Virus record (IMG/VR): IMGVR_UViG_3300032053_000007
Direction: 5' to 3' (one strand)
Source of the DNA: a virus
Lineage: Duplodnaviria > Heunggongvirae > Uroviricota > Caudoviricetes
Length of the DNA stretch: 64,000 bases
A program made the translations under genes and the position numbers. This document shows positions 30,840-46,390 of this stretch, piece by piece. Positions within the stretch are counted from its first letter, which is position 1, and the number at the start of each line of letters is the position of its first letter. Under the pieces are notes generated by a model. The model was not told the origin of the DNA, made no database searches, and saw only the letters and a program-made list of their open reading frames with translations.

Positions 30840-31060
30840 CTAAAGAAAGACATTGTATTCGATGCGGACGGAGAATCTTTAATCCTTCGGACACTTGTTT
30901 TGAATGCAATAAAGAATGGCAGACGTATATGAAAACTCATCCTTTGAAAACTAACATAGATTATTCCAGAGATAACGTAGAACAAAAACTTAGAGAAATG
31001 AGAGAGGAATCAAACAAACGCTGGAAAGGCTTTATTAGCGAAAAGGTGATGTTCACTTGA
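30836..31060 (+). CDS. ZR-W family zinc-ribbon mini-protein
   Basis: CIRCG..CFECNKEW; ends EKVMFT. Confidence 0.6.
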   Translation: MTKERHCIRCGRRIFNPSDTCFECNKEWQTYMKTHPLKTNIDYSRDNVEQKLREMREESNKRWKGFISEKVMFT

Positions 31061-32537: not shown

Positions 32538-33218
32538 ATGAAAAAAAGAAATTTGATAATAATCGCGCTTTTGATTGCGTTAGTGATACCAATAGTGATA
32601 GTTCCAGCATTTGCTTCTGACGACAATGATAAGCCAAATTGCAATGACGGTGACGATGGCAACTCTTGTAACAACAAGACCAAAATAATCTACGTGGACA
32701 GAATTGTTTACGTCAACCAAACGGTTGAAGTTCCTGTTTACGTGGACAGAATAGTGTACGTTGACAGAGTTGTTGAGAAAATCGTTTACAAAGACAGAAT
32801 AGTGGAAAAGACTGTTTACATTGACAGAATAGTTGAAAAGATTGTCTATGTTGACAAAGTTGTTGAAACAGTCGTTTACGTTGAAGTGCCAATAGAGGTC
32901 ATCAAAGAAGTCATTAAGGAAGTGCCTGTCGAAGTCATCAAGGAAGTCGAAATAATCAAATACTGCAACAACACGGTCTATATCGAAGTGCCAAAAGAAG
33001 TCATCAAGTACATCGAGAAAGTCCTTTACGTGAACAGAGTTGTTTACGTTGACAAGCCATTCTACGTCTATATCACCGACAACAAGAAAGACTGTAACCC
33101 ATGTTGGCTCTTGATAATCATACTGACTTTCATACTAGGACTGATAATTGGGGCATTGCTCAACAATCGAAAGTGTGTTTGCGTCAAAGAAACCAAAAAC
33201 AAAAATACCAAACAATAG
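32538..33218 (+). CDS. secreted/anchored repeat protein (x-V-Y-x-D-R-I-V-E-K decapeptide repeats)
   Basis: N-terminal signal/TM, Cys/Asp/Asn-rich stretch, about 10 repeats, then (E)VIKEV repeats, C-terminal TM. Confidence 0.65.
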   Translation: MKKRNLIIIALLIALVIPIVIVPAFASDDNDKPNCNDGDDGNSCNNKTKIIYVDRIVYVNQTVEVPVYVDRIVYVDRVVEKIVYKDRIVEKTVYIDRIVEKIVYVDKVVETVVYVEVPIEVIKEVIKEVPVEVIKEVEIIKYCNNTVYIEVPKEVIKYIEKVLYVNRVVYVDKPFYVYITDNKKDCNPCWLLIIILTFILGLIIGALLNNRKCVCVKETKNKNTKQ

Positions 33219-33256
33219 AGCATTTTTTTAATTGCTCTCTATATTTCTCTTTTTTA
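33217..33256 (+). terminator. hairpin plus T-run terminator
   Basis: agagca-tttttttaat-tgctct then tttctctttttt. Confidence 0.55.
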
Positions 33257-33388
33257 ATCTAGTTATCCATTTTAGGGCATACTGCTTTAATTTTCTGTAA
33301 CTTTAAAACATAACAAACTCTTCTGGTTTTATATATGAACCCTTCTTAAACACTACTACTGTGGGCGGAACGGCAAATTTGAGAAATT

Positions 33389-33404
33389 TTAATCAGTTGA
33401 TTAA
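33389..33404. promoter_or_regulatory. TTAATCA-NN-TGATTAA palindrome
   Basis: ttaatcagttgattaa. Confidence 0.55.
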
Positions 33405-33446
33405 TTAATTTATTGGAAAGACCGTGGAATTTTTTCCAAAGTCGAG

Positions 33447-33462
33447 TTAATCAACTGTTTAA
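33447..33462. promoter_or_regulatory. degenerate palindrome
   Basis: ttaatcaactgtttaa. Confidence 0.45.
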
Positions 33463-33506
33463 AAAAGTGGCTTTTGATGGCACAAGGGCTTGGACAGACG
33501 GTTATA

Positions 33507-33539
33507 TTGGCATGGATGTTCTAGGCAAAAGTTTATAAG
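33507..33539 (+). promoter_or_regulatory. GAGCATGG-box/TATA promoter cassette
   Basis: ttGGCATGGatgTTCT..TTTATAAG; offset 24; leaderless ATG 33563. Confidence 0.6.
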
Positions 33540-33562
33540 GGACGCTGATAATATATCCTAAT

Positions 33563-33853
33563 ATGACAACAAGAGAAGATGCAATAAAGCACATTCAGAA
33601 TTATAACAAGCCAAACGAACATATCTGTCTAATAATTTGGAATGTTGAGGACGTTCTGGGACGGGCAAAAGACAGGGGTATGAAAATTACCAAAAATGAA
33701 GCAGAGGAAATTATTGACATAATGGAACATAGACATGACGCAACAATAGGTGTAACTTGGGATACTATTGACTGTTATCTAGGAGATTTAGATGACAAAC
33801 GCCAAGAAGAGGAAAAGGCAAAGAATGGGGCAGAAAAGGTGTCCTTCACTTGA
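33563..33853 (+). CDS. VxFT-tail protein
   Basis: ends EKVSFT; TGA opens cassette 33851. Confidence 0.6.
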   Translation: MTTREDAIKHIQNYNKPNEHICLIIWNVEDVLGRAKDRGMKITKNEAEEIIDIMEHRHDATIGVTWDTIDCYLGDLDDKRQEEEKAKNGAEKVSFT

Positions 33854-33883
33854 GTATGGGGTTTTAGGGCAAAGGTTTATAAG
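33851..33883 (+). promoter_or_regulatory. GAGCATGG-box/TATA promoter cassette
   Basis: tGAGTATGGggtTTTA..TTTATAAG; offset 24. Confidence 0.6.
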
Positions 33884-33916
33884 GGTCGATGCTATTAATA
33901 ATTCAGGGTAGATTAG

Positions 33917-34174
33917 ATGACAAAGAAAAAAGAAACATTAATGCGTGATTTGAGTGTTAATCCAGAAAACGAAATGGATATTGAAACGGCAGTTCAAAAG
34001 CTAAAAGAAAGACAACGTAGAGCAATGCTTGTTCGAGATAAACGTATGGAAGAGTTTTCAATGTTCCGTTCGAAGAAACTTGCGTGTTTTTGGATTTTCG
34101 GGGGTTTGTTGTTAGCTTTGGCATTCATAGAGTTTATGAATGTACTATTAAGCAGTATGGCAACACCACTTTAG
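33917..34174 (+). CDS. C-terminal-TM small protein
   Basis: track ORF; hydrophobic C-terminus. Confidence 0.55.
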   Translation: MTKKKETLMRDLSVNPENEMDIETAVQKLKERQRRAMLVRDKRMEEFSMFRSKKLACFWIFGGLLLALAFIEFMNVLLSSMATPL

Positions 34175-34183
34175 GTGAATGGA

Positions 34184-35041
34184 ATGACCGAAACAGAAAA
34201 TAAAATCGCGGTTGAAATATCTGAACCCGATAAGGTTCAAGAAATGAGCGATGCAATACTTGAAATGATAGTGAAGAACCTAGTCGATAACGGAAGATTG
34301 CTTGTTATTGGGCTAGGGGGAACGGGCAAGACAAACGCCGTGAAGCACATAGTAAGATACATTCGAAACTCACAAAGATATAAAGAGGGAAAAATAGTAA
34401 TTCGAATAGGCGATAGTGCTAATACATGGAAACTCACATTTGATGAAATACCCTACGTTGACATAACAAAGAAACCGAGCATTCCAGAGGACGAGAAAAC
34501 AGTTTTGCTTGATTTGGGATTCTTATCAACTGCAAAAAATGTTAGCCTAGTCGAAAACTTAGTCGGACAAGACTATTACATTCAGAGAGAATCAATGAAC
34601 AAGAACAACGGGACGGCAGAAATCCAGAGAATCTACGTTCTGGAAGAGATTCAGAACTTGTTTGGTTCTTACAAGAAATCTGACTTCTGGTTGAAGATTT
34701 GGAGCGAATCAAGAAATTATAGTCAATTCTTCATAGGAATAGGTCAACGTCTGAGTGACATTTCTACTCAGATAGTTGAGCGCACAAAATATCTACTGAT
34801 AGGTTCTCTCGCTGGCGATAACGACATCTCGAAATTGAAAAGGGCATTTGGTTCAGAGAAGGGACAGAGAATAGCAAATGTAGTTATGAGTTTGCGAAAA
34901 GGCGAATTTCTCTGGGTTGACAGAGAGGGCGAAAACTCTATGAAAATTTCGTTTCCAAAGTTCGAACAGAACGGTAAACCTTATGAATTTAACGACAAAA
35001 CCATTAACACAAGGATTCATGCCGAGAGAGTTTTCCTATGA
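34184..35041 (+). CDS. P-loop NTPase (FtsK/HerA/A32-type candidate)
   Basis: Walker A GLGGTGKT, Walker B-like RIYVLEE; ATG 34184 after SD AGGTGA (track used GTG 34175). Confidence 0.6.
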   Translation: MTETENKIAVEISEPDKVQEMSDAILEMIVKNLVDNGRLLVIGLGGTGKTNAVKHIVRYIRNSQRYKEGKIVIRIGDSANTWKLTFDEIPYVDITKKPSIPEDEKTVLLDLGFLSTAKNVSLVENLVGQDYYIQRESMNKNNGTAEIQRIYVLEEIQNLFGSYKKSDFWLKIWSESRNYSQFFIGIGQRLSDISTQIVERTKYLLIGSLAGDNDISKLKRAFGSEKGQRIANVVMSLRKGEFLWVDREGENSMKISFPKFEQNGKPYEFNDKTINTRIHAERVFL

Positions 35042-35187
35042 ATTTCTGGAAAGTTTATCAGAAATGGGTTTTGGTTACGGGCAATATTATTGCCTATTAC
35101 ACCCATTCTGAATTTCTTCTTTTCCTTTTTTTCCTTCTCAATGACCCATTAATAGTTTTAGCATTGAAAGGGAGAACAACAGAATGA
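35038..35187 (+). CDS. small hydrophobic protein (49 aa)
   Basis: ATGA overlap at both ends. Confidence 0.4.
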   Translation: MNFWKVYQKWVLVTGNIIAYYTHSEFLLFLFFLLNDPLIVLALKGRTTE

Positions 35188-35405
35188 TTAAGGTCAGATG
35201 TGCGAATTGCAAAAAAGAATTTTACTGTAATGGTAATGATATGTGTTCTGTCGGCATTCGAGTTTCACAATTTCACAAAAAGATACATGAATGTTATTGT
35301 GAAGAATGTACGAGAAAACAACGCTTAGATACCGCGAAAGGAATTAAAAAATGCGGTTACAGAAAAGTTGAGGACGTAGAACCAGAAATGGTGAAATTCA
35401 CATGA
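35184..35405 (+). CDS. ZR-F family zinc-ribbon mini-protein
   Basis: CANCKKEFYCNGNDMC..CYCEEC; ends EMVKFT. Confidence 0.65.
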   Translation: MIKVRCANCKKEFYCNGNDMCSVGIRVSQFHKKIHECYCEECTRKQRLDTAKGIKKCGYRKVEDVEPEMVKFT

Positions 35406-35725
35406 TTGTCGGATTAAAAATCTTAGATGATTTTCAAGTTGGGGACGCGGAAGAGTTAGTCGAACAACTGAGAAAACGCGGTTTGCTAGATTTGACTCTT
35501 GAACAAGTGAAAGAGAAAGTTAAGAAAGAATATAATGGCACAGATTTTGAGGACGTAGTTTGTAACGATGATTGTATAGACTATATTCTCAAAGATTTAG
35601 CTGACGGTTGTTTTTATTGGGAATACCACAATAGTTCAGAACAATTTACGATAAACATAATTGACCCTAATAAACCATTCACTAAAGACGGTAAAGAACC
35701 AAAGGTTAAGGTGCAATTCAGTTGA
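35402..35725 (+). CDS. acidic VxFS-tail protein
   Basis: ends VKVQFS (AGTTGA junction). Confidence 0.6.
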   Translation: MIVGLKILDDFQVGDAEELVEQLRKRGLLDLTLEQVKEKVKKEYNGTDFEDVVCNDDCIDYILKDLADGCFYWEYHNSSEQFTINIIDPNKPFTKDGKEPKVKVQFS

Positions 35726-35949
35726 GTTTACCAACACAGGGCTGTTTCAACTGTTTGTTTAACAACCGAAAAAAAGGATATTGTGATACGAAAGGAGAAC
35801 AATATGGAACGAGATATGAGAATATAGGAAAACACAGCGAAAAATCCATTAAGACGACAGGAAGCAGTTGTATAACTTGGAAACAAGGAATAGACCTTTT
35901 CGCAAAATGGGATAAAGAGAAAGTAAAGGAAAGGGTGAAGTTTACTTGA
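35722..35949 (+). CDS. GCFNC family mini-protein
   Basis: QGCFNC..GSSC; ends ERVKFT. Confidence 0.6.
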   Translation: MSLPTQGCFNCLFNNRKKGYCDTKGEQYGTRYENIGKHSEKSIKTTGSSCITWKQGIDLFAKWDKEKVKERVKFT

Positions 35950-36119
35950 AGTGTAAAAATTGTAAAAAAGAGTTTAATTGCAAGCAATCATGTGATGCGA
36001 AAAATAGAAAGATGAACCAATGTTTATGTCCTGATTGTTGGGTGAAAAAGAAAGAAAGACTTGTAGAATGTCTTAAAGTCAAGCAACCAAATGAAAGGGA
36101 AATAGTGATGTTCACTTGA
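35946..36119 (+). CDS. ZR-F family zinc-ribbon mini-protein (57 aa)
   Basis: CKNCKKEFNCKQSC..CLCPDC; ends EIVMFT. Confidence 0.6.
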   Translation: MKCKNCKKEFNCKQSCDAKNRKMNQCLCPDCWVKKKERLVECLKVKQPNEREIVMFT

Positions 36120-36265
36120 ACAAAATAATACCCAGAGGACAAGCCAACAGAGAAGAGTTGAAAGTTGGAGATGTCTTTCACAAAAACGGTTATCGTTATC
36201 TGGTTCAAAAAATAGTTCATGGGATTCCATATTTAGAAGAACAAGAGGAAGTGCAATTCACTTGA
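36116..36265 (+). CDS. VxFT-tail mini-protein (49 aa)
   Basis: ends EEVQFT. Confidence 0.5.
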   Translation: MNKIIPRGQANREELKVGDVFHKNGYRYLVQKIVHGIPYLEEQEEVQFT

Positions 36266-36390
36266 ATCGAGAACAGATAATCAAAAATCTAAAATCTGTT
36301 CCAACAGGAAATGTCCAACAGAATCAGCAAATAATTGCTCAGGCATTAATTTACATCTTGGAGAATAAAGAAAAGGTGTCCTTCACTTGA
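36262..36390 (+). CDS. VxFT-tail mini-protein (42 aa)
   Basis: ends EKVSFT. Confidence 0.5.
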   Translation: MNREQIIKNLKSVPTGNVQQNQQIIAQALIYILENKEKVSFT

Positions 36391-36551
36391 GAAGAATGCA
36401 ACTGCAAGCTAACATAAAAACGGGCGTAACTACTCTGAAAGTTTTGATATGCACAAACTATTTACAAGACAGATGCCAAAAGTGTGACATGTATTCTGTG
36501 TGCGATGTTAGTGGCAAAAAGCCTAAAAAGGAAGTTGTGTGTTTCACTTGA
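36387..36551 (+). CDS. Cys-rich VxFT-tail mini-protein (54 aa)
   Basis: CQKCDMYSVC; ends EVVCFT. Confidence 0.5.
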   Translation: MRRMQLQANIKTGVTTLKVLICTNYLQDRCQKCDMYSVCDVSGKKPKKEVVCFT

Positions 36552-36763
36552 CCGAAAAAATTCCGCTAGAAGAAGATTATGACCCCCCAGATTATAGAGA
36601 GAAACTTACTTGTTATAATTGTGAGAAGTTCGCAAGTAGTATTAGAGAAATAGGCAATGGGGGAAGAGTAAAATTTGCTCACAAGTTTTGGTGGCTTTGT
36701 CCCGAATGTTTCAAAAAGCTAATTTTGAAAGAAAAAAGAAAAGAGAGGGTTGAGTTCACATGA
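36548..36763 (+). CDS. zinc-ribbon VxFT-tail mini-protein
   Basis: trimmed to junction TTG; CYNC..CPEC; ends ERVEFT. Confidence 0.6.
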   Translation: MTEKIPLEEDYDPPDYREKLTCYNCEKFASSIREIGNGGRVKFAHKFWWLCPECFKKLILKEKRKERVEFT

Positions 36764-37047
36764 CACGTAAAGTTAGTTTAAGATGGCTTGCGTATTCTAA
36801 TGACCCTCTTGCAGTAAAATTTAGAGGGGGTATAAGTGGGGGTTCAGAGGAATGTGCTCTTTGCTCTATGTTTTTTGAAGATGACTACGATGACGGAGAA
36901 CATATATCTAAATGTTCATTTGAAGAGATACACGAAAGCGAGATAGAACACTTTCAACAGATGGCAGATGAGATGATTTTGGATATTAAAATTACTTCAC
37001 TAGGCGATATAAGGAACGCTATAAAAGAAGTAGTTCAGTTCACTTGA
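36760..37047 (+). CDS. VxFT-tail protein
   Basis: ends EVVQFT; TGA opens cassette 37045. Confidence 0.6.
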   Translation: MTRKVSLRWLAYSNDPLAVKFRGGISGGSEECALCSMFFEDDYDDGEHISKCSFEEIHESEIEHFQQMADEMILDIKITSLGDIRNAIKEVVQFT

Positions 37048-37077
37048 GTATGGTAGTTCTGGGCTAAGGTTTATATA
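37045..37077 (+). promoter_or_regulatory. GAGCATGG-box/TATA promoter cassette
   Basis: tGAGTATGGtagTTCT..TTTATATA; offset 24. Confidence 0.6.
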
Positions 37078-37108
37078 GGACGATGCTAATATACTCTTGT
37101 TGATAAAA

Positions 37109-37318
37109 ATGGACTCCGAAGTTGATTTGATTATCGCCTACGAATCAGGCGAACTAGACGAACAGAAAACTCTGGAACTTTTCTCGATGCTAGTGAAAAA
37201 CGGACACGCTTGGAGTTTACAGGGAACCTACGGACGCATGGCTCACCAATTAATCGAAGCTGGCTACCTAGATAAACAGGGAAATATAACTCGAACATTC
37301 GAAGAGGACGAAGGTTAA
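37109..37318 (+). CDS. hypothetical protein
   Basis: trimmed to ATG 37109. Confidence 0.5.
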   Translation: MDSEVDLIIAYESGELDEQKTLELFSMLVKNGHAWSLQGTYGRMAHQLIEAGYLDKQGNITRTFEEDEG

Positions 37319-37482
37319 TGCCTGAACCGAAATTCAAAATAGTTACGAGTAAACGCAATTGGGTTGAGAAAGCGAAGGACAAGCAAACAGCCTACATACA
37401 GGCAGAGAAAAAGTTGGACAGGGACGAAAAGATTCTCTTCAACTTAGCATGGAATCAGGAAGCAAAACTTAGCGGTGAATGA
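37318..37482 (+). CDS. hypothetical small protein (54 aa), paralog of 31057
   Basis: TAATG overlap. Confidence 0.45.
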   Translation: MPEPKFKIVTSKRNWVEKAKDKQTAYIQAEKKLDRDEKILFNLAWNQEAKLSGE

Positions 37483-37483
37483 A

Positions 37484-37618
37484 ATGCCAAAAACCCTTTA
37501 TGATGTTGTCTTAAAGGAATTGGACAAACAATTGAAATACTACGGAGAAGATGTCGATTCAGAAATAGTTGCTTCGGAGATTGTAAAAAAAGTTGAGAAG
37601 TTTCTAGGAGAAAAGTAA
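37484..37618 (+). CDS. hypothetical mini-protein (44 aa)
   Basis: ATG 1 nt after previous stop. Confidence 0.4.
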   Translation: MPKTLYDVVLKELDKQLKYYGEDVDSEIVASEIVKKVEKFLGEK

Positions 37619-37619
37619 A

Positions 37620-37790
37620 ATGCCAAAACAAGCAACAGATGAACAAGTAAAAGACCTAGTTCGAAAGATAGACTTTCGGTCAAGAGTTTACGAAAGACTC
37701 AGAGTTCTAGGCTATTCAAAAGAAGATGCAACAGAAATAGTTATCGAATTAAGAAAAGCAATGGAGAAAATAGACGATGCCAACGCTTGA
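37620..37790 (+). CDS. hypothetical small helical protein (56 aa)
   Basis: ATG 1 nt after previous stop. Confidence 0.4.
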   Translation: MPKQATDEQVKDLVRKIDFRSRVYERLRVLGYSKEDATEIVIELRKAMEKIDDANA

Positions 37791-38013
37791 ATCTTCGATT
37801 TACATTGAAGCCCAAAAGAAAAAGAAAGACCCGAATGCAGAACTTAGACGAATGAAGGGAACGGCGATTCTTTTCATCTGCGATAATCCGACCCCGATAT
37901 TCACACGACAATTTAATGCGGAGAAACAAGCCGTTTCCGAGTTGGCGTTTTCGGAAGAAATGGTTGAGAACCCCGAAAAAAGGAAGGAAAGACTTAGAGG
38001 TTACGTTTGCTGA
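37777..38013 (+). CDS. hypothetical protein
   Basis: track ORF; TGA opens cassette 38011. Confidence 0.5.
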   Translation: MPTLESSIYIEAQKKKKDPNAELRRMKGTAILFICDNPTPIFTRQFNAEKQAVSELAFSEEMVENPEKRKERLRGYVC

Positions 38014-38043
38014 GTACGTTCGTTCTAGGCATACATTTATATA
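38011..38043 (+). promoter_or_regulatory. GAGCATGG-box/TATA promoter cassette (variant box)
   Basis: tGAGTACGTtcgTTCT..TTTATATA; offset 24; heads 17-gene array. Confidence 0.6.
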
Positions 38044-38076
38044 GGACGAACACATAGACATAACTGAGTGTCTGCA

Positions 38077-38343
38077 ATGGAAGGAAGTAAAGCGTTTCGC
38101 GCTCAGATAGACAAACTTGTTAAGCAACGAACAAAACTTAAACTAGACGATGACGTAAAAATATTGAGGGGGGAAAACAAAGGCAAGATAGGGTTCATTG
38201 ACAAAATAGGCTCTATAACAGACATTAAAGACGTAAATTCTACACACGTTCAATATCTTGTTCGTGTTGGCAAAGACCTTCTTGCATACGATGATTTTGA
38301 ATTACAGGTAACAATGAAACCTGAGAAAGTGGACTTCACATGA
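38077..38343 (+). CDS. VxFT-tail protein
   Basis: trimmed to ATG 38077; ends EKVDFT. Confidence 0.6.
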   Translation: MEGSKAFRAQIDKLVKQRTKLKLDDDVKILRGENKGKIGFIDKIGSITDIKDVNSTHVQYLVRVGKDLLAYDDFELQVTMKPEKVDFT

Positions 38344-38606
38344 TGTTGAAAACGGATTGTCTAAAATGTGGTGCATGGGTTCCTGAATATAATCGGGACG
38401 ATGATATGATAGACGTTTCTTTGTGCAAAGATTGTCTTGCGATGTGGCACAAATTTCATCACAAATATGGAAGGGATATTGAAAGAAAATATACTCAGGG
38501 CATAAATGGACATCACGCAAGTTGGGCTGTTTTTCTAGGCGAACTTCCTAACTTCTGGGATAAGAGTATAGACAAACCTAAAAAAGAACGAGTGCAATTT
38601 ACATGA
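38340..38606 (+). CDS. ZR-W family zinc-ribbon mini-protein
   Basis: CLKCG..CKDCLAMW; ends ERVQFT. Confidence 0.65.
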   Translation: MMLKTDCLKCGAWVPEYNRDDDMIDVSLCKDCLAMWHKFHHKYGRDIERKYTQGINGHHASWAVFLGELPNFWDKSIDKPKKERVQFT

Positions 38607-38761
38607 ATAACCCCGATTGTGAAAAGTGTCATTGCAACGGTTGTGCTAACTTCTGCTATAAAACTTGTAAAAGTCATTCATGTGGTGCTGACAGAGAAAA
38701 TTATCCTTACAAAATTTTGTGCAGAGAAATCAAAATCAGAGAGAAGGTATTGTTCACTTGA
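38603..38761 (+). CDS. Cys-rich VxFT-tail mini-protein (52 aa)
   Basis: 9 Cys; ends EKVLFT. Confidence 0.5.
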   Translation: MNNPDCEKCHCNGCANFCYKTCKSHSCGADRENYPYKILCREIKIREKVLFT

Positions 38762-38985
38762 AGTGCGCTAAATGTCACAAAGAAATTCAGGGACGAGAAG
38801 TTAAGATAGGAGAATCTAAAGAAACTATGAGAATTATTTGTATGGGGTGCAGAACAGTTTGGATAAAAATTTATGAGAAAAAGATTCAGATATTAGAAGG
38901 TTTCCAACTTCAAAATAAAGTTTGGAAAGAAGAGTATCACAAGTTCATAGGAATTATAGACAAAGAACAGGTAGAATTTACATGA
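38758..38985 (+). CDS. ZR-W family zinc-ribbon mini-protein
   Basis: trimmed to junction TTG; CAKC..CMGCRTVW; ends EQVEFT. Confidence 0.6.
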   Translation: MKCAKCHKEIQGREVKIGESKETMRIICMGCRTVWIKIYEKKIQILEGFQLQNKVWKEEYHKFIGIIDKEQVEFT

Positions 38986-39128
38986 ATCGAAACGAACAAC
39001 CTGATTATTGCAAAAAGTGTGAGTTGGATTGTGAGGGAAGAGTATGGGATTCAAAAAGAGGATTGTGGTATTGCACAAGTTGGACTTGCTTTATTCCAGA
39101 TAACAGAGAGCGAGTTGAGTTTACTTGA
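38982..39128 (+). CDS. Cys-rich VxFT-tail mini-protein (48 aa)
   Basis: trimmed to junction ATG; CKKCELDC; ends ERVEFT. Confidence 0.55.
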   Translation: MNRNEQPDYCKKCELDCEGRVWDSKRGLWYCTSWTCFIPDNRERVEFT

Positions 39129-39505
39129 GTGGCACTTTTTCGAATTGGACTTTACGCAAAGAACCTGAGTTTGAAACCGAACTAACAGATATTATGGAAG
39201 AATATTCAGATGACACGATAGAGAAAAATATCCTTATCATTTTGAAACGGGAGAAATTATGGGATAAGGGGTTTGAACTGATTTTTCCTATTGGAGCTTT
39301 CAAAGAGATAGATAAAGAAAATGATAGCTACCAATTTGACTATGAGATTTGGAAGGGCGATAAGGTAATTGCTAGTGGAACTTGTTACGGGACTGTCACA
39401 ACCGACTTGGCATATTCAGAAATTTTAGATATGACACTAGAAATAAATGAGGGATATAGCGAACTTGTACGTTTACATTCAAAAGAAAAGGTTGAGTTTA
39501 CATGA
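39125..39505 (+). CDS. acidic VxFT-tail protein
   Basis: ends EKVEFT. Confidence 0.6.
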   Translation: MSGTFSNWTLRKEPEFETELTDIMEEYSDDTIEKNILIILKREKLWDKGFELIFPIGAFKEIDKENDSYQFDYEIWKGDKVIASGTCYGTVTTDLAYSEILDMTLEINEGYSELVRLHSKEKVEFT

Positions 39506-39717
39506 TAGTCCCCGAACTTTTCAAAAGAACTTGTAGAACGTGTGGACGAATTTTTTACTGTGATAATGATTGTGGAAAACTTGAAAAGAGCAAACATAGT
39601 AATGGTTGTGAATGTGGATTATGCCACGCAAAAACAGTAAGGGAAAATGGTCGTTCTTGCGAAGAACGAATGGAGCGAAACAAATATCGTTATCAAGAGG
39701 TTGTACAATTTACATGA
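39502..39717 (+). CDS. ZR-F family zinc-ribbon mini-protein
   Basis: CRTCGRIFYCDNDC..CECGLC; ends EVVQFT. Confidence 0.65.
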   Translation: MIVPELFKRTCRTCGRIFYCDNDCGKLEKSKHSNGCECGLCHAKTVRENGRSCEERMERNKYRYQEVVQFT

Positions 39718-39815
39718 ACCATCTACAACATATTTTTACAAAATATAGAAGTCTCAAAAAATGGTATGACCGTTTTGAAATTGAGAAAGAACCCGTGAGA
39801 GTGCAATTCACATGA
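39714..39815 (+). CDS. VxFT-tail mini-protein (33 aa)
   Basis: trimmed to junction ATG; ends VRVQFT. Confidence 0.5.
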   Translation: MNHLQHIFTKYRSLKKWYDRFEIEKEPVRVQFT

Positions 39816-40027
39816 CACAAAAATCCTATAATCGTATTTGTGAAAAATGCGGTGAATCTTTTCAAACGAATAACGATATTCTTTGTCAAAAATGCAGAGA
39901 AAAATGGTATAATTTTTACGAACTTCACAAAAACGATGCCGACATTCCAGAATCCGAAGCAAAAGCAACCTTTCTCTGGGACAAGTTTATTAAAAGGGTA
40001 GATAAAGAGGTAGTGCAATTTACATGA
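39812..40027 (+). CDS. ZR-W family zinc-ribbon mini-protein
   Basis: CEKCG..CQKCREKW; ends EVVQFT. Confidence 0.65.
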   Translation: MTQKSYNRICEKCGESFQTNNDILCQKCREKWYNFYELHKNDADIPESEAKATFLWDKFIKRVDKEVVQFT

Positions 40028-40233
40028 AGAAATATCCATTAGCTCTAACAAAGAAGTGCGGTAATTGTGGTAGAACTTTCACTTGTAAAGGGAGAGGATG
40101 GACTAAATCTTCAATAACGGGAAAATGTCCTCACGAATATAGCGTTTGTTGGTGTGAAAAATGCAATCATGGGTCGGGTCGTCCAGAAGGTTGCGAAGAG
40201 GTTGACTTAAAAGAAGTGGTGCAATTCACATGA
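40024..40233 (+). CDS. ZR-F family zinc-ribbon mini-protein
   Basis: CGNCGRTFTCKG..CWCEKC; ends EVVQFT. Confidence 0.65.
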   Translation: MKKYPLALTKKCGNCGRTFTCKGRGWTKSSITGKCPHEYSVCWCEKCNHGSGRPEGCEEVDLKEVVQFT

Positions 40234-40373
40234 CGGAAATATACTGCGCTGGAAAAATAATTTACTGCGATGTCGGGGAGATAAATCATTATGACGATTT
40301 TTGTCAAAAGAGTTGCAGACAACGTTCGATTTGTGAAGTGAGAAAACAAAAAGAAGAGGTTCAATTCACTTGA
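40230..40373 (+). CDS. Cys-rich VxFT-tail mini-protein (47 aa)
   Basis: ends EEVQFT. Confidence 0.5.
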   Translation: MTEIYCAGKIIYCDVGEINHYDDFCQKSCRQRSICEVRKQKEEVQFT

Positions 40374-40567
40374 AAGAAATGACGTGCCAAGTTTGCGGAA
40401 AAAAGTTCTTCTGTAATTGTGACGAAGAATGTTCCCCAGACGCTACATTATGCTATTGTAAAGAATGTTCAATCAAAAAATGGGGAACAAAATTTACTGA
40501 AGATATAGGGTCACTTGAATTGTGCTATGGGGGAATACCCGAAAAAGAGAAGGTGTTATTCACTTGA
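40370..40567 (+). CDS. ZR-F family zinc-ribbon mini-protein
   Basis: CQVCGKKFFCNC..CYCKEC; ends EKVLFT. Confidence 0.65.
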   Translation: MKEMTCQVCGKKFFCNCDEECSPDATLCYCKECSIKKWGTKFTEDIGSLELCYGGIPEKEKVLFT

Positions 40568-40773
40568 CAAACAAACTCGTTGATAAAGAAGAACTTCCAG
40601 ATTTTTGTCCCGTGTGCGGAGAAAAGAATAACGGAAAATGGGCGTTTCTTTGTATAAAATGTTGGATGGTTTTTGTCAAGTGGAGTCATGAAAAATATCC
40701 GAATGACATAATAATTTCAGACCATATTCCAGAATATTTAGCCAAACTCAAAGAGAAGGTAGAGTTCACTTGA
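40564..40773 (+). CDS. ZR-W family zinc-ribbon mini-protein
   Basis: trimmed to junction TTG; CPVCG..CIKCWMVF; ends EKVEFT. Confidence 0.6.
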   Translation: MTNKLVDKEELPDFCPVCGEKNNGKWAFLCIKCWMVFVKWSHEKYPNDIIISDHIPEYLAKLKEKVEFT

Positions 40774-41048
40774 AATGTTCGAAATGTGGAAAACCAATAA
40801 CTGTAACTCTTCCAAAAAAGAAATGGTTCCACGTAAGCAATTCTAATAATTTTGAACATAAAGACGAAGATACCAAAACGATAGATGCGGTTTTAATCTT
40901 TTTAGTAAATAGCGGATTTAAACATAACATCTGGATTTGTAGAGGATGTTATGACGAATGGGGCATCTTTCATGGGAAACATTTTGGAAGATGGGAATAT
41001 TGCTGGAATCTCTGGTTTAATATGAGAGAGGTTGTTCGATTCACATGA
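40770..41048 (+). CDS. ZR-W family zinc-ribbon mini-protein
   Basis: CSKCGK..CRGCYDEW; ends EVVRFT. Confidence 0.65.
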   Translation: MKCSKCGKPITVTLPKKKWFHVSNSNNFEHKDEDTKTIDAVLIFLVNSGFKHNIWICRGCYDEWGIFHGKHFGRWEYCWNLWFNMREVVRFT

Positions 41049-41260
41049 ACAAAATTTGTGGAAAATGCGGAAAACATTTCGTGTGCAATAATGGGTGCGC
41101 TAGATTAGGTCTTAGTCATGGCAAAGTGCAATACGGGGGTTGTTATTGCTCCGATTGTGCGCGAAAGTTTGAGAAATCCGAAGTTGGGGAATACCCAAAA
41201 GATTTGAAAGAAGTTTGTTCACGATTCTGTAAAGCTAAAGAAACGGTGTCATTCACATGA
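41045..41260 (+). CDS. ZR-F family zinc-ribbon mini-protein
   Basis: CGKCGKHFVCNNGC..CYCSDC; ends ETVSFT. Confidence 0.65.
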   Translation: MNKICGKCGKHFVCNNGCARLGLSHGKVQYGGCYCSDCARKFEKSEVGEYPKDLKEVCSRFCKAKETVSFT

Positions 41261-41487
41261 CCCATAAATCTCCGCTTGCACAATGGAAAAAGAAACCACT
41301 TGTCGAATTGAAAAGTGAAATTCATACTTTACAAGCATTGAGCAACCGATTAACTAGGTCTGCGGAACTACATAAAAAAGAGAGAAATTTTCCAATGCAA
41401 ATGGTTTGTCTGATAAAGAAGAGAAAAGTCGATATTAGAATTTCTGAACTTATGTTTCGGATTCCAGAAAAGGTGAGTTTCGATTGA
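41257..41487 (+). CDS. VxFD-tail protein
   Basis: ends EKVSFD. Confidence 0.6.
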   Translation: MTHKSPLAQWKKKPLVELKSEIHTLQALSNRLTRSAELHKKERNFPMQMVCLIKKRKVDIRISELMFRIPEKVSFD

Positions 41488-41624
41488 CAGAAGAGAAAAT
41501 GATAGAATGTTTTAGATGTGGAAAACTTTGGTTCTGCAAACCCTTCGCTGGAAGTCGTGCACTTTTTTGTCCCGAATGTCTAAAACTATTGTATAAACAA
41601 AAAGAGAAAGTTCGGTTCGATTAG
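41484..41624 (+). CDS. zinc-ribbon VxFD-tail mini-protein (46 aa)
   Basis: CFRCGKLWFC..CPEC; ends EKVRFD; stop TAG, last gene of array. Confidence 0.55.
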   Translation: MTEEKMIECFRCGKLWFCKPFAGSRALFCPECLKLLYKQKEKVRFD

Positions 41625-41729
41625 TCCCCTACCCCTAGCTACATTTGACAGGTAAATAGACTAGGGAAAAAGACGTTCTGGATGCTAGGGCGAAGCCAAT
41701 GGGAACTGAAGCCTGAAGTCGGTGCTTTT

Positions 41730-41745
41730 TTAATCAGTTGATTAA
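41730..41745. promoter_or_regulatory. TTAATCA-NN-TGATTAA palindrome
   Basis: ttaatcagttgattaa. Confidence 0.55.
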
Positions 41746-41899
41746 AAGTCTGGGGAATACGTTGGGGGCTGGCAGAGGGCTTCACCATAAACCGAAATCT
41801 AATTGGGAAGAAAAAACGCCTATGTGCGTTATGTGACACTCAGGATTCTACTAAAAATTTAATTTTCGAGGGGACGGAAAGTTACACCGAAAGTGTGAC

Positions 41900-42031
41900 C
41901 TAGCCTTCGTCCTCTAGTGCTTCCTCAAGTTCTGACGGGTCGGGACAACCAACGGGTCGCCTGAAAGTTTTAACTACTTTTGCAAGAACAATTAAACCTA
42001 TTATGAAACCCAGAGTATCAAACGGAAACAT
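41900..42031 (-). CDS. small membrane protein (43 aa)
   Basis: MFPFDTLGFIIGLIVLAKVV..; ATG about 12 nt after TSS predicted from minus-strand cassette 42067-42099. Confidence 0.4.
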   Translation of the reverse strand: MFPFDTLGFIIGLIVLAKVVKTFRRPVGCPDPSELEEALEDEG

Positions 42032-42066
42032 ATTTGTGCCTCTTTGTGAATACTACAACACGGTAG

Positions 42067-42099
42067 CTTATAAATCTTTCCCTAAAAACGCCATGCTCA
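42067..42099 (-). promoter_or_regulatory. GAGCATGG-box/TATA promoter cassette (minus strand)
   Basis: reverse complement reads tGAGCATGGcgtTTTT..TTTATAAG; offset 24. Confidence 0.55.
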
Positions 42100-42164
42100 A
42101 TTTCCAGCACAGCTTTCACAATGGTCGCTTTTGCCAAACGGGACGCGGTGCGAGGCGCATTTAA

Positions 42165-42180
42165 TTAATCAGGTGATTAA
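42165..42180. promoter_or_regulatory. TTAATCA-NN-TGATTAA palindrome
   Basis: ttaatcaggtgattaa. Confidence 0.55.
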
Positions 42181-42230
42181 CTGCTTCACGCCCCTTCACG
42201 CCGAGGCACGATGCGAACTGTTGAGCTTAT

Positions 42231-42246
42231 TTAATCAAATGATTAA
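42231..42246. promoter_or_regulatory. TTAATCA-NN-TGATTAA palindrome
   Basis: ttaatcaaatgattaa. Confidence 0.5.
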
Positions 42247-42340
42247 TTTCAAAACTCGAAGCCTTTACATTCGAAGTCTGCGCGTTGCCGTTTTCCAAGA
42301 CTGATTTTCCAAAACGAACCCGAACGAAACCCAGATTCCA

Positions 42341-42520
42341 TAGGACTGATGGTCTTTTTAACATCGTTTCCATTGGTCGAAAAGCATTATTTGAGCCTCT
42401 TCGAACAAAAGAAGGACACTCGTTCAATATCGTTTATATATGTTCGAAATTATTGAACGATTTGCCCCGAAGAGAACGCTCAGGGGATGAAATTGAGAGT
42501 CGGGCATTATCCACAGTCCT
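42341..42520 (+). repeat. conserved 180-nt noncoding element, copy 1 (candidate structured RNA)
   Basis: collinear with 56347-56526: taggactgatg .. hairpin cgttcaat/attgaacg .. cgggcattatccacagtcct. Confidence 0.5.
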
Positions 42521-42629
42521 TTGGGGGACACTACTTCGGGGCACAGTTAAACTCTAGGTGTAATAAAAGTTTCGACCATGCCTTTGACCATCAACATTTA
42601 AGTCACTCAGAGTGCAACCTTTCACTTTT

Positions 42630-42645
42630 TTAAACAGTTGATTAA
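42630..42645. promoter_or_regulatory. palindrome (one mismatch)
   Basis: ttaaacagttgattaa, 7 nt upstream of box. Confidence 0.5.
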
Positions 42646-42651
42646 CTAAAA

Positions 42652-42684
42652 CGAGCATGGTCGTTCTGGGGAAACCTTTATAAG
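42652..42684 (+). promoter_or_regulatory. GAGCATGG-box/TATA promoter cassette
   Basis: cGAGCATGGtcgTTCT..TTTATAAG; offset 24; leader cgctggcatctata shared with 44919 cassette. Confidence 0.65.
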
Positions 42685-42714
42685 CTACGCTGGCATCTAT
42701 AAAGGTGTGGAAAA

Positions 42715-44442
42715 ATGACAAAGCAGAAACAAGCAAAGACGAACAACTTCTCTAAGATACTTGACGAGATGAGGAATCTTGCCATAGCAATTACGAAGGA
42801 CAAACGGATTCGTATCAAGTATATTCCAGAACAACCAACTTCTGCTTTCAATATGGAAAACTTTGAGATTTCTTTGAGTTTACAGAGTTATCCCGATTTC
42901 GTGAAAACATCGCCCCGTCTATTCCGAAAAATCCTAGACGGTGACATGGTTCACGAGTGCGGTCATCTGATTCTAACAAAACCGAATTGGGAATTTTTCA
43001 ACAATTGGACAACAAAAATCAAACGACAGAGAGGATTTTACAAGCTGGCTCACGAAGTTTGCAACATAGTTGAAGATAAGCGCGTGAATCATTTCATAAT
43101 TCTCAGATACAGGTTTGATGTCGGCAAGAGGCTACTTTTGGCGAATTTGATACTAAAAGACATGATAGACAACACAATTGAAAAGCCACAAATAGCCATG
43201 TCAACCATCTTACCGAAGGGCGAAAACTTAGGCGAAAACGAAATTCCAAACATGACAATTCAAGCTGGACAACAAGACGGGGTTTACATGGTTGCAATTT
43301 TGTGCAATGAAGGTCTATATGAGGCTAAATGCACAGAGTTATGGAACAAACTAAGCCCAGATGCTAGAAAGGACTGTGAAACAGCCCTTAAAGTGCTAGA
43401 GGGGACGAAATATCAACGTGTCAAACTCGACATAATAAGGTCTTGCCAAACGATTTATGAATTGGTAGCTAAACACTTGAACGCTGACTATACGACAAAG
43501 GAATATGTCGTTTCTAGAAGAGGGGGCAACGTAAAGGGCAAAATATCGGACAGACTTAGGCAATTACTAGAAAAAGAGGAAGAGCAAGAAAAGGCAGAAG
43601 AGGACAAGAAGAAACACCTAGAAGATTTGCAGAAAGGTTCGGGTGCTGGCGAAGGCACAGGCGAAGAGATTCCAGCCCCAGACCCAGATTTTGAGGCGTA
43701 TTCGAAACTTCTGGACGAATGCAAGCCTGAAATTTCCGAGCTATTGAATCAACTAAAGAAGAAAATGAAACCGAGAGTTCAACGGGACATTTTCCAGAAA
43801 CGCGGAAAAATGATGAGTCCAATTGTTCCACGCATCTACACAAACAGCTTTAGGGGAACCGTTCGCAATGTGTATCTGCGTACAACAACAAAATTTGAGA
43901 AGGAACAAGTCGCAATTCAATTTTGGTTCGATTTCTCAGGGTCAGTTAGTCGAATAGAGGCTGAAAAGATAACCACTATACTGAATGAGGTCTTTGGACA
44001 TTACGTTGACGATTACGGGTTCAGTATTGGGTGCTTTGGGGCAGATACCCAGAAAGTAAAGACTTTCTTTGAAACCTTCGAAAACACACGGGCAAGAATT
44101 GGAGCTATTTCGGTGAATGCTGGCGGTACTGAGGTTTCCGTTGGATTAGAGGCAAGCCTGAGAATGTTCAATACGATTAAAGGCGAACGCCGAAAGATTC
44201 TGGTCATTGCGTCCGATTTCTGCTTCTGTGGTGATGAAGAAACGAAAGCAGAGGAATTAATCGACCAATATGCGAAAGCTGGAATTGAATGTATCTTCAT
44301 AGGTTTCTGTGACTGTGAGAATGTAGAAACCTTCGCAAGCAAAGTGAAAAACTTGAAGTGCTCACGAACACGGATAAACCAAATATCCGAATTACCTCAG
44401 AGATTCCTAAACGTGTATCTAAACGTAGAAACCCAGAAGTGA
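42715..44442 (+). CDS. vWA-domain protein with N-terminal HExxH putative metallopeptidase domain
   Basis: MVHECGHLI; MIDAS-like FDFSGSVS; E/K-rich linker; architecture as in metallopeptidase-plus-VWA proteins partnered with MoxR ATPases. Confidence 0.65.
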   Translation: MTKQKQAKTNNFSKILDEMRNLAIAITKDKRIRIKYIPEQPTSAFNMENFEISLSLQSYPDFVKTSPRLFRKILDGDMVHECGHLILTKPNWEFFNNWTTKIKRQRGFYKLAHEVCNIVEDKRVNHFIILRYRFDVGKRLLLANLILKDMIDNTIEKPQIAMSTILPKGENLGENEIPNMTIQAGQQDGVYMVAILCNEGLYEAKCTELWNKLSPDARKDCETALKVLEGTKYQRVKLDIIRSCQTIYELVAKHLNADYTTKEYVVSRRGGNVKGKISDRLRQLLEKEEEQEKAEEDKKKHLEDLQKGSGAGEGTGEEIPAPDPDFEAYSKLLDECKPEISELLNQLKKKMKPRVQRDIFQKRGKMMSPIVPRIYTNSFRGTVRNVYLRTTTKFEKEQVAIQFWFDFSGSVSRIEAEKITTILNEVFGHYVDDYGFSIGCFGADTQKVKTFFETFENTRARIGAISVNAGGTEVSVGLEASLRMFNTIKGERRKILVIASDFCFCGDEETKAEELIDQYAKAGIECIFIGFCDCENVETFASKVKNLKCSRTRINQISELPQRFLNVYLNVETQK

Positions 44443-44448
44443 GTAAAA

Positions 44449-44613
44449 ATGGTTTGCATAATTGACGATAAAGAATGTAGAAAATTGGCAGACGAAATTT
44501 CTAAAGACCTCTTCGAATACAATAAACACAAGATAAAGCTAACCAAAAAATTCTTGTGGACTATGCTTTATTGCGAATTGAAACGAAGTAAACTTAACAA
44601 AACTCGAATGTGA
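44449..44613 (+). CDS. hypothetical small protein (54 aa)
   Basis: ATG 6 nt after vWA stop. Confidence 0.4.
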   Translation: MVCIIDDKECRKLADEISKDLFEYNKHKIKLTKKFLWTMLYCELKRSKLNKTRM

Positions 44614-44619
44614 TAACTT

Positions 44620-44847
44620 GTGAAATATAAAAGACATTGCACACATTGTAAGAACAATTTTTTCTGCAACGGAAAATGCAAAAGTGATAGACTTAAAAAT
44701 CCGAATGACTGTTATTGTCTTGAGTGTGTAAAAAAAGTTTCGGAAGAGTTTTCAAAGTTGTCTGGGGCAGACTCTACTTATGAATCTTTTAACGTTGTTC
44801 AATTTCATTGCCAAGAATCGGGCAGAGAAGAAGTGCAATTTACTTAA
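44620..44847 (+). CDS. ZR-F family zinc-ribbon mini-protein
   Basis: CTHCKNNFFCNGKC..CYCLEC; ends EEVQFT with TAA and no downstream gene. Confidence 0.65.
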   Translation: MKYKRHCTHCKNNFFCNGKCKSDRLKNPNDCYCLECVKKVSEEFSKLSGADSTYESFNVVQFHCQESGREEVQFT

Positions 44848-44896
44848 ACTTTTGGTGCAACCTTTGGTTCGGGCGGGAGAGGGGTTTTGAGAAATT

Positions 44897-44912
44897 TTAA
44901 TCAGTTGATTAA
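44897..44912. promoter_or_regulatory. TTAATCA-NN-TGATTAA palindrome
   Basis: ttaatcagttgattaa, 7 nt upstream of box. Confidence 0.55.
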
Positions 44913-44918
44913 CTAAAA

Positions 44919-44951
44919 TGAACATGGTCTTTCTAAGCAAACATTTAAATA
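44919..44951 (+). promoter_or_regulatory. GAGCATGG-box/TATA promoter cassette
   Basis: tGAACATGGtctTTCT..TTTAAATA; offset 24. Confidence 0.65.
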
Positions 44952-44985
44952 GGACGCTGGCATCTATACTCGTAAGGTAATAAAG

Positions 44986-46386: not shown

Positions 46387-46390
46387 AAAA

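Follow-up and report, generated by a model that had tools for sequence, protein, structure and literature searches.

We analyzed 64,000 nucleotides (hereafter, the window) of a virus-like element from the IMG/VR record IMGVR_UViG_3300032053_000007 (Caudoviricetes), focusing on positions 35184-41260, where families of small cysteine-rich genes recur along tightly packed arrays (genes are named here by their lowest window coordinate). The explanation that we favor, and consider reasonably likely, is that these are old families of Cys-rich mini-genes, carried in long operons and shuffled with breakpoints at a stereotyped junction between genes. Sequence comparison with related contigs supports the gain, loss, replacement, and movement of these gene cassettes, both within and between arrays.

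By our own gene calling of the plus strand, the window holds 226 plus-strand open reading frames (ORFs) of at least 25 amino acids (aa) at a coding density of 90%, and nearly all of its genes lie on this strand. Eighty of the 226 ORFs end in a common tail, ..V.F[T/D/S]-stop, and for 73 of these 80 the next start codon overlaps the stop codon as NTGA (ATG in 38, TTG in 33, and GTG in 2). The junction is ~21 nt long, with the consensus A.A GAR AAG GTG nnn TTY ACW TGA, and it combines the C-terminal tail of one protein (..K/R-E-K/V-V-x-F-T), the start codon of the next gene, which overlaps the stop, and, 8 nt before that start, a Shine-Dalgarno (SD) sequence, AAGGTG. A strict form of the pattern, GARRWGGTnnnnTTYACWTGA, occurs 32 times, where 0 occurrences are expected. 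The junction at 40213-40233 (+), GAAGTGGTGCAATTCACATGA, is a typical example: it encodes the tail ..EVVQFT, carries GGTG as an SD-like element at a distance of 8 nt from the following start, and ends in a TGA overlapped by an ATG. The tail valine is encoded by GTG in 56% of cases, compared with 16% genome-wide, and the tail lysine by AAG. It is this codon bias that places an AAGGTG SD 8 nt before the ATG or TTG start, and codon choice in the tail shows selection on the junction at the nucleotide level.

Long polycistronic operons make up the variable regions of the element, and their mini-genes have 33-126 codons. The tail cassettes encode proteins with a median length of 71 aa and a Cys content of 5.75%, compared with 2.3% in other genes; 52 of the 80 (about two thirds) carry at least four Cys. 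These Cys-rich mini-proteins presumably bind zinc. The tail itself was modeled as disordered, with a predicted local distance difference test (pLDDT) score below 50. Given stop and start codons that overlap, and an SD located within the upstream ORF at 5-10 nt from the start, the arrays have the layout of translationally coupled operons, in which internal cistrons would be translated by termination-reinitiation at the NTGA overlap. A junction hairpin that would mask the SD (GGTG pairing with CAC) was considered and rejected, as positions -12 and -6 do not covary (P = 0.37).

Tail genes lie mostly in uninterrupted arrays, of which we describe five, all on the plus strand. Two occupy the focal region. 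Nine tail cassettes (35184, 35402, 35722, 35946, 36116, 36262, 36387, 36548, and 36760), all joined by 4-nt NTGA overlaps, make up the array at 35184-37047, and 17 more follow at 38068-41624 with no internal gaps, behind a single promoter-like cassette. The other three comprise 13 + 4 tail cassettes (16284-20104, with 15992 just upstream), 12 (22428-25013), and again 12 (49465-51907).

An earlier, sequence-only reading of the window had proposed that at least three families of zinc-ribbon mini-proteins, here called ZR-F, ZR-W, and GCFNC, recur among these cassettes. To exclude tail-driven similarity, the last 7 residues of each protein were removed before comparison. In all-versus-all BLASTP, the trimmed proteins formed 41 pairs at E ≤ 0.01, of which 18 remained at E ≤ 1e-3. 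Ten full shuffles gave 0-2 pairs at E ≤ 0.01 (~1.4 on average), and ten shuffles with Cys positions fixed gave 0-7 (mean, 2.6). As 41 pairs stand against 2.6 in the Cys-fixed shuffles, the similarity exceeds a shared Cys pattern, and clustering thus recovers significant relatedness beyond coincidental Cys spacing. Grouped by single linkage at E ≤ 1e-3, the proteins form a total of 14 clusters, which include the three named families (some of them split), and further small clusters exist beyond ZR-F, ZR-W, and GCFNC.

Family membership was judged by leave-one-out (LOO) hidden Markov model (HMM) scores in bits, relative to the best non-member. This replaced an iterative HMM search of the window, which drifted and fused ZR-F with ZR-W. 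ZR-F proved to be a real family: all 10 genes first listed, including 12668 on the minus strand, and an additional member, 18927, score 21.7-39.5 bits, with the best non-member at no more than 18.7. The same is true of GCFNC, in which all four members (14.4-29.8 bits) outscore every non-member (at most 9.4). For ZR-W, 8 of the 11 proposed members stand, seven of them at 25-37 bits (17344, 19865, 22654, 38340, 38758, 39812, and 51453) and 24577 as a borderline case at 18.7, while 30836 (12.0), 40564 (8.0), and 40770 (14.8) score under non-members (up to 16-23) and are unsupported or at best distant. Held-out members from related contigs score 29-34 (ZR-F), 29-32 (ZR-W), and 28 bits (GCFNC). Family alignments contain invariant Cys columns together with conserved non-Cys and motif positions: F13 and CYC in ZR-F, W32 in ZR-W, and GCFNC and R-x-G-C in the family of that name. 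The ZR-F signature has eight Cys (CxxCxxxFxC..C..CxCxxC..C), and ZR-W has a CxxC..CxxCxxxW knuckle followed by two predicted helices. Among other paralog pairs that had been suggested, 17099/18682 and 16830/19202 are strong (2e-11 each) and 31057/37318 is moderate (46% over 37 aa); 6018/16732 is weak, and 5875/6018 and 401/52399 are marginal. The families had also been described as interleaved. This is descriptively correct, with 0 same-family neighbors among the 80 tail cassettes, compared with 2.0 expected at random placement; the difference is indistinguishable from random (P = 0.11), i.e., the families are dispersed, not actively alternated.

In the focal region, ZR-F genes lie at 35184-35405 (73 aa; LOO, 32.9 bits), 35946-36119 (57 aa; 31.4), 39502-39717 (71 aa; 28.4), 40024-40233 (69 aa; 23.3; with orthologs in the related contigs L029, at 78%, and L025, at 54%), 40370-40567 (65 aa; 28.4; nearest in-genome paralog 50817, E = 2e-8), and 41045-41260 (71 aa; 28.7), all on the plus strand. 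Elsewhere, the plus strand carries 6164-6343 (59 aa; tail ..KVKFD; 21.7), the added member 18927-19157 (76 aa with 10 Cys; 21.8; orthologs in contigs L021 and L022 at 82-84%), the isolated cassette 44620-44847 (75 aa; 35.6), and 50817-50996 (59 aa; 39.5). The minus-strand member 12668-12850 (60 aa; 36.5) is inside a 687-bp insertion, 12293-12979. Three further minus-strand ORFs share this insertion: a short one whose product ends in ..KVQFD, a 39-aa zinc-ribbon gene with the end ..KVQFT, and one of ~80 aa with a ParB/Srx-like ..NGHHR.. motif. The insertion looks like a small mobile module, inserted inverted.

ZR-W genes, all on the plus strand, are found in the focal region at 38340-38606 (88 aa; 29.3 bits), 38758-38985 (75 aa; 28.6), and 39812-40027 (71 aa; 37.1), the last of which was used for structure modeling. 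Further members are 17344-17595 (83 aa; 33.4), 19865-20104 (79 aa; 30.4), 22654-22893 (79 aa; 35.9), the borderline 24577-24870 (97 aa; 18.7), and 51453-51695 (80 aa; 25.0). The candidates unsupported as ZR-W span 40564-40773 and 40770-41048, both on the plus strand, and 30836-31060. The GCFNC genes are 23075-23263 (29.8 bits), 35722-35949 (75 aa; the weakest of the four, at 14.4 compared with no more than 8.9 for non-members), 46391-46606 (71 aa; 19.0; paired with 23075 at E = 8e-9), and 51229-51456 (75 aa; 18.6), again all on the plus strand. The array at 49465-51907 thus includes one member of each family (ZR-F 50817, GCFNC 51229, and ZR-W 51453).

We compared the window with relatives found through a ZR-F homolog (L021 and L022) or through a 575-aa backbone protein (L023, L024, L025, L028, and L029), and with L036, a 1.9-kb contig from a metagenome-assembled genome (MAG). 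The test of shuffling rests on seven of these contigs: L021, L022, L023, L025, L028, L029, and L036. The order of backbone genes is mostly conserved (among them 14786, 20101, 20391, 20790-21681, 34184, 37852, 42715, and 44986). Tail cassettes, when compared with those of relatives, are inserted, deleted, replaced, and permuted. The array at 15992-20104 is permuted in both L021 and L022. L021 has an extra gene between 16732 and 16830, is without 17771, 18682, and 19202-19865, and has 17995 placed after 18557 and two novel cassettes. In L022, the order is 16732, two novel cassettes (one of them ZR-F), 17995, 18927, a ZR-W gene, 17592, a 19202-like gene, one novel cassette, and a 17099-like gene. 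In the array at 22428-25013, L021 is without 23075, and L022 has 22890 after 23260 and 24440 before 23732. L029 retains 35402, 36387, 36760, 38603, 38982, 39812, 40024, 41045, and 41257 from the focal region 35184-41260, with eight novel cassettes between them. Movement between arrays is seen as well. The L029 ortholog of GCFNC gene 23075 (73% aa and 80% nt identity) sits in a different array, between the orthologs of 39812 and 40024, and homology changes right after the TGA both on leaving the 39812 context and on entering the 40024 context. L028 has an ortholog of 24867 (81%) and a 40564-like gene in another array, and two GCFNC genes in tandem.

Breakpoints concentrate at junctions. In the window arrays, 26 of 36 homology-block 3′ ends fall within -4 to +8 nt of a junction stop, compared with 5.7% by chance (P = 5e-25), and 31 of 38 block 5′ starts fall within -30 to +8 nt, compared with 17.5% by chance (P = 1e-17). 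One event can be followed to the nucleotide. L021 has a 165-bp cassette between 16732 and 16830, and the single junction found there in the window is a chimera of two L021 junctions: CAGAAAGA followed by AAAGGTGCAGTTCACATGA, i.e., the left half of one and the right half of the other, with a crossover within AAGGT. The idea that cassettes are shuffled at gene borders, which had been put forward before any relatives were compared, is therefore supported: gene order is not strictly conserved, its breakpoints lie at junctions, and insertions, deletions, and swaps bounded by junctions are found in related contigs (the 165-bp indel, the moved 23075, and the permuted arrays).

Cassettes are evolving as protein-coding genes. 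Excluding the tails, ratios of nonsynonymous to synonymous divergence (dN/dS) between the window and orthologs in L021, L022, and L029 are 0.22-0.28 for cassettes and 0.17-0.23 for backbone genes; thus, the cassettes are protein-coding and under purifying selection. Identity is 25-53% between paralogs within the genome and 50-98% between orthologs in other contigs, and 9 of 11 ZR-F copies have their best match in another genome. Since most ZR-F copies have a closer ortholog elsewhere than their in-genome paralog, the paralogs are old. What had been taken for a paralog expansion is accordingly real as far as the existence of the families goes, and ancient rather than recent; judged from these identities, it is an old diversification whose copies have been maintained in parallel lines of orthologs. 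Neighboring cassettes differ in their synonymous divergence from L021 (0.07 to 0.73), which indicates mosaic exchange. Strain-level variants were considered as a source of recent recombinants and set aside: the contigs that encode the 39812 protein (L042-L045) show 100% identity to the window over their overlap. Positions 34274-43853 are 100% identical in four further samples (JGI 3300035660, ENA ERZ27247977, and Logan SRR11721899 and SRR9651192), so the genotype is widespread and its arrays are stable over short times.

Two more distant lineages carry stereotyped tails of different sequence. In L040 (JGI 3300078615), mini-genes at 7033-9448 end in ..F[I/V/Q]FR-stop, encoded by TTTnnnTTTAGGTGA, with an SD AGGTGA over the stop codon and a start 5-7 nt downstream. 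In L049-L051, mini-genes end in ..WSVS-stop, encoded by TGGAGTGTATCA followed by the stop codon and ATG; in L050 (Logan SRR26074199), all 12 consecutive genes at 6914-9774 carry this unit. ZR-F members are found with all three tail types (V.F[T/D], F.FR, and WSVS), and the F.FR-tailed members are nearest to the FT-tailed 35184/12850 subfamily. As this distribution indicates, the tail is tied to the array in which it occurs, irrespective of protein family. Each of the three lineages thus has one stereotyped, SD-bearing coding junction, with a spacer that is uniform within the lineage and different between lineages. Such a pattern would be expected from concerted evolution by recombination among junctions, and it could also stem from an RNA-level requirement specific to each lineage.

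The junction has few other known occurrences. Searches for its pattern in IMG/VR returned single chance matches per contig only, and in GTDB genomes we find one real relative, the 1.9-kb contig L036 in a Pacearchaeota MAG; GTDB matches in Bacillus and Bathyarchaeota were rejected as single chance matches. The mini-proteins are likewise rare. Profile searches of 5.8 billion proteins returned 11 ZR-F, 17 ZR-W, and 12 GCFNC clusters, all from similar metagenome contigs. A tail-free ZR-F profile searched with HMMER over 1.84 billion representatives matched 53 proteins at E ≤ 1e-3, two of them evident false positives, and 43 of the 53 match a 7-Cys signature. Among the 53, 28 have a V.F[T/D..] tail, 4 have F.FR, and 21 have neither (at least one of these has WSVS).

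Comparisons with known domains place the families only partly. ZR-F has no Pfam family: one of 11 members matches zf-MYND (E = 7.6e-5) and the other 10 do not. A PDB profile search gave C2H2 and SMYD noise only, and membership in zf-MYND is not supported. Of 12 ZR-W members scanned, two have DUF7569 matches (best E = 5.5e-8), one has a weak match to the HVO_0758 profile (E = 0.018), and the remaining members hit generic zinc-ribbon models only, at E > 1e-3. The L021 ortholog of 17344 carries a precomputed match to PF24453 (DUF7569). GCFNC homologs have no precomputed Pfam domain, and PDB sequence searches returned generic zinc-finger noise only. In an AlphaFold2 model of ZR-W 39812 (pLDDT, 76.8), residues 6-19 form a beta-hairpin knuckle, the second CxxC stands at the head of a helix that begins at residue 26, and a second helix and then the disordered tail follow. 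The model was compared with the zinc-ribbon/treble-clef fold, in which zinc is coordinated by two CxxC knuckles and the second of these lies at a helix N terminus.

How might cassettes be exchanged? The junction repeats themselves may act as the recombination substrate, through short-homology recombination or template switching. Breakpoints within the junction mean that each rearrangement regenerates an intact tail, SD, and start, and recombination among junctions would also keep them homogeneous within a lineage. The mini-proteins could be accessory host-interaction binding modules of the takeover or anti-defense type, a role guessed at from the parallel with variable regions in large phages.

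Several observations weigh against shuffling at the junction as the favored explanation, or limit its reach. Only one indel is recent enough to have left a chimeric junction. Genes are packed without spacers, so viable breakpoints are confined to gene borders and location alone is no proof; recombination using the junction as substrate would be inseparable from breaks elsewhere followed by selection for intact junctions. The exact core shared by two junctions is ~6-15 nt, which is short for classical homologous recombination. Genes without the tail also move: 30054 is relocated in L029, and other non-tail genes have been gained or lost. The 687-bp block at 12293-12979 is absent from L021 and L022 and lies at a non-array site in inverted orientation, and recombination between direct repeats is therefore no explanation for it. 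Contigs from seven sequencing samples (ENA, JGI, and Logan assemblies) share the array at 100% identity, and thus turnover is slow, with no strain-level hypervariability. As for the proteins, a Foldseek search of the ZR-W model against the PDB gave nothing below E = 2, and the ZR-F model (pLDDT, 58.8) was too poor for a fold search; zinc binding and the fold of the mini-proteins are predictions.

The strongest alternative, though we consider it less likely than not, is that the junction is a translation signal only, with illegitimate recombination striking anywhere and selection removing products that lack an intact junction. Tail codon bias does yield AAGGTG at the canonical spacing, and in each of three lineages an SD is built into a different tail. 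The gain, loss, and movement of non-tail genes, and the inverted cassette block at a non-array site, are also as this alternative would have it. Yet the spacer TTYACW (GTATCA in the WSVS lineage) is invariant even though an SD needs no such spacer, which resembles concerted evolution; the single recent indel crosses over inside the AAGGT core; and order changes are concentrated in tail arrays, with the backbone mostly conserved. A more ambitious form of junction-based shuffling, which we put forward tentatively and consider less likely than not, is that the in-frame junction permits plug-and-play cassette exchange in a clade of (probably archaeal) large viruses. Here, a lineage-specific unit of ~15-21 nt (EKVxFT, FxFR, or WSVS) would be recombination site, ribosome-binding site, start, and tail at once, kept uniform by concerted evolution.

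A dedicated enzyme that recognizes the junction and moves cassettes, such as an integron-like site-specific recombinase or a homing-type nuclease, is improbable. The layout is integron-like, with promoterless cassettes behind one promoter and a repeated site between them, and there are candidates: the HNH-like gene 15293 and the ParB/Srx-like ORF of the 12293-12979 insertion. HNH-like ORFs lie beside or inside arrays (15293 in the window; between cassettes in L036), and the ParB-like ORF accompanies the inverted cassette block. Against such an enzyme, Pfam scans find no integrase or recombinase domain among the 30 largest window ORFs (64 of ~152 kb), and the 21-nt junction is coding and has no inverted repeat, and its positions -12 and -6 do not covary. 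Very improbable, and largely refuted, is that the families are artifacts of convergent zinc-knuckle Cys patterns and the order differences are assembly chimeras at the repeated junction: generic zinc-finger profiles do weakly match many unrelated proteins and Cys-fixed ZR-F decoys reach 21-23 bits, but pairs exceed those in Cys-fixed shuffles (41 versus 2.6), independent members on other contigs score 28-34 bits, the tail-free profile retrieves proteins that independently bear the tail, the window array is identical in the ENA, JGI, and Logan assemblies of seven samples, repeats of ~21 nt are far shorter than the final assembly k-mer implied by k141 contig names, and orthologs diverge by 12-30% in nucleotides, and so represent distinct genomes, not mis-joins.

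First genes of operons and arrays are preceded by a conserved promoter-like cassette of ~50 nt, TTGAGCATGGnCTTTCTAGGGCAAGG-TTTATATA-GGACGCTG, whose TATA-like core lies 27-50 nt before the first start codon. A loose regular expression for the core matches 34 times on the plus strand and 7 times on the minus strand, and we count ~25-30 copies of the cassette. The copy at 38008-38058 (+) has a purine run like the transcription factor B recognition element (BRE), then TTTATATA and GGACG, and lies 32 nt before 38068, which opens the 17-cassette array. Another, at 33848-33898 (+), precedes 33917; its presumed targets are 33917, the ATPase gene 34184, 35038, and the array at 35184-37047. Further plus-strand copies are at 957-1007, 3073-3123, 6514-6564, 15843-15893, 37042-37092, 42649-42699, 44916-44966, 47300-47350, and 54741-54791. 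Their BRE-like plus TATA form suggests archaeal-type transcription with short or absent leaders. In a scan of 33000-45000, which includes two arrays, sigma70-type promoters and intrinsic terminators were at or below shuffle expectation. Besides the junctions, the promoter-like cassettes form another class of dispersed repeat through which recombination could occur. A palindrome, TTTTAATCAGTTGATTAACT, which may be an operator or terminator, occurs just upstream of several promoter cassettes, at approximately 5031-5060, 42634-42660, 44870-44900, 52290-52320, and 58560-58590.

The window is part of an uncultivated virus-like element, probably an archaeal virus. It matches the ENA metagenome contig ERZ27247916 k141_6238898 (151,756 bp) at full identity, and a second, independent assembly gives a contig of 151,787 bp; the agreement of these lengths indicates that the whole element is probably ~152 kb and that the contigs are close to complete. 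Contig sequence was also covered for ~6.5 kb past the 3′ end of the window (in a 10-kb flank of window gene 60025-60498). Large ORFs within the window or adjoining it code for two GT2 glycosyltransferases, an RNA ligase, an SPFH protein, a SprT-like protein, MoxR-type and KaiC/RecA-type ATPases, a class II ribonucleotide reductase (RNR), a dCMP deaminase, and an HNH endonuclease. The window has no tRNAs, and most of its proteins have no match in Pfam or PHROG. A 285-aa ATPase has no match in phages by tblastn, and a nucleotide search of the window against 50,697 phage records gave just one chance match of 106 nt. The host is probably archaeal. Hints in this direction are the promoter-like cassettes of archaeal BRE/TATA form, weak matches to archaeal DUF75xx families, an RNR close to those of haloarchaeal viruses, among others, and the related 1.9-kb contig binned in a Pacearchaeota MAG; none of them is decisive.

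Other features of the element concern single genes and strain differences. The 575-aa Cys-rich backbone protein (42715-44442) has no Pfam or PDB match, and its counterparts in two relatives (L028 10001-12706 and L025 8732-11491) have 901 and 919 aa. The L028 copy keeps both halves around an insert of ~330 aa, possibly an intein or an extra domain. The 128-aa ORF 15293-15679, just upstream of the first array, has no Pfam match at E < 0.01; it is homologous (34%) to an ORF between tail cassettes in L036 (reverse complement 720-1208), and this homolog has an HNH-like motif (..INHKNHNGN..CANCN..). Contig L001 (ERZ27247683 k141_72449) is 100% identical to 32715-52512 and falls abruptly to ~95% from 52513, with 53070-53266 replaced by 442 bp; the switch at 52512/52513 is a recombination boundary between two strains. 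L038 and L039, from two other samples, have an insertion of ~1.9 kb near 58894-59058 that contains a 160-aa minus-strand gene and is flanked by a 165-bp duplication of window 58894-59058.

The nearest precedent for these arrays is modular shuffling mediated by PeSLs in the hyperplastic regions of T4-type phages, in which mini-circles, excised through recombination between adjacent repeats, have been demonstrated (Arbiol et al. 2010, PMC2839356; Comeau et al. 2014, PMC4122927). In both cases, small and mostly ORFan accessory genes occupy variable regions of a large virus genome, and a short repeat at gene borders bounds indels and replacements between relatives (26 of 36 block ends here). The window also has a repeated element of promoter type, the ~50-nt cassette. 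PeSLs are, however, intergenic and noncoding, and consist of a promoter and a stem-loop terminator. By contrast, the window junction is coding, in frame, and without promoter or terminator, and separate promoter-like cassettes stand at array starts. The in-frame border unit of tail, SD, and start is thus what differs from a PeSL.

The arrays also resemble integrons, in that promoterless single-gene cassettes stand behind one promoter with a recurring site between them and vary in content and order. Integron attC sites are imperfect inverted repeats of 57-141 nt between cassettes. Cassettes in the window instead overlap by 4 nt, their sole recurring element is the 21-nt coding junction, which is not an attC-like palindrome, and translation appears to be coupled through overlapping stop and start codons. 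The 30 largest window ORFs include no IntI-like recombinase.

At the protein level, the closest comparison is with the one-domain zinc-finger mu-proteins of Haloferax volcanii, which have C(P)XCG motifs (Nagel et al. 2019, PMC6562870). Like these and DUF7569 proteins, the mini-proteins have fewer than 100 aa, consist of essentially one CxxC..CxxC module, and have many paralogs per genome. Unlike the haloarchaeal genes, which are dispersed on the chromosome, those of the window are virus-borne, arrayed, and tail-tagged, and ZR-F is without a Pfam family, as are GCFNC homologs by precomputed domain matches. Overlapping ATGA stop and start codons with an SD inside the upstream ORF are a general feature of prokaryotic operons. 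Here, in contrast, an entire 21-nt unit, including spacer and peptide, is stereotyped ~80 times per 64 kb, and related lineages use other stereotyped units. We know of no described precedent for an in-frame unit of tail, SD, and start, and none turned up in literature searches on DUF names and conserved coding junctions.

The shuffling of small accessory genes as modules is a key concept in virus genome evolution, and only a few systems, T4 PeSLs and integron attC sites among them, have known mediating signals. A border signal that lies inside coding sequence and does three jobs would make each exchange automatically in frame and translatable. If plug-and-play exchange is correct, any mini-gene could pass from one operon to another, or from one co-infecting virus to another, and be expressed immediately, in a recombinase-independent, translation-level analog of integrons. 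With three related lineages using three different units around the same protein family, the system would offer a clean model of the way in which viruses maintain a set of exchangeable mini-genes. The mini-proteins represent new, virus-restricted families of zinc type, with ZR-F amounting to ~50 representative clusters in 1.84 billion proteins. They are candidate host-takeover or anti-defense factors in probably archaeal hosts, where few such factors are known.

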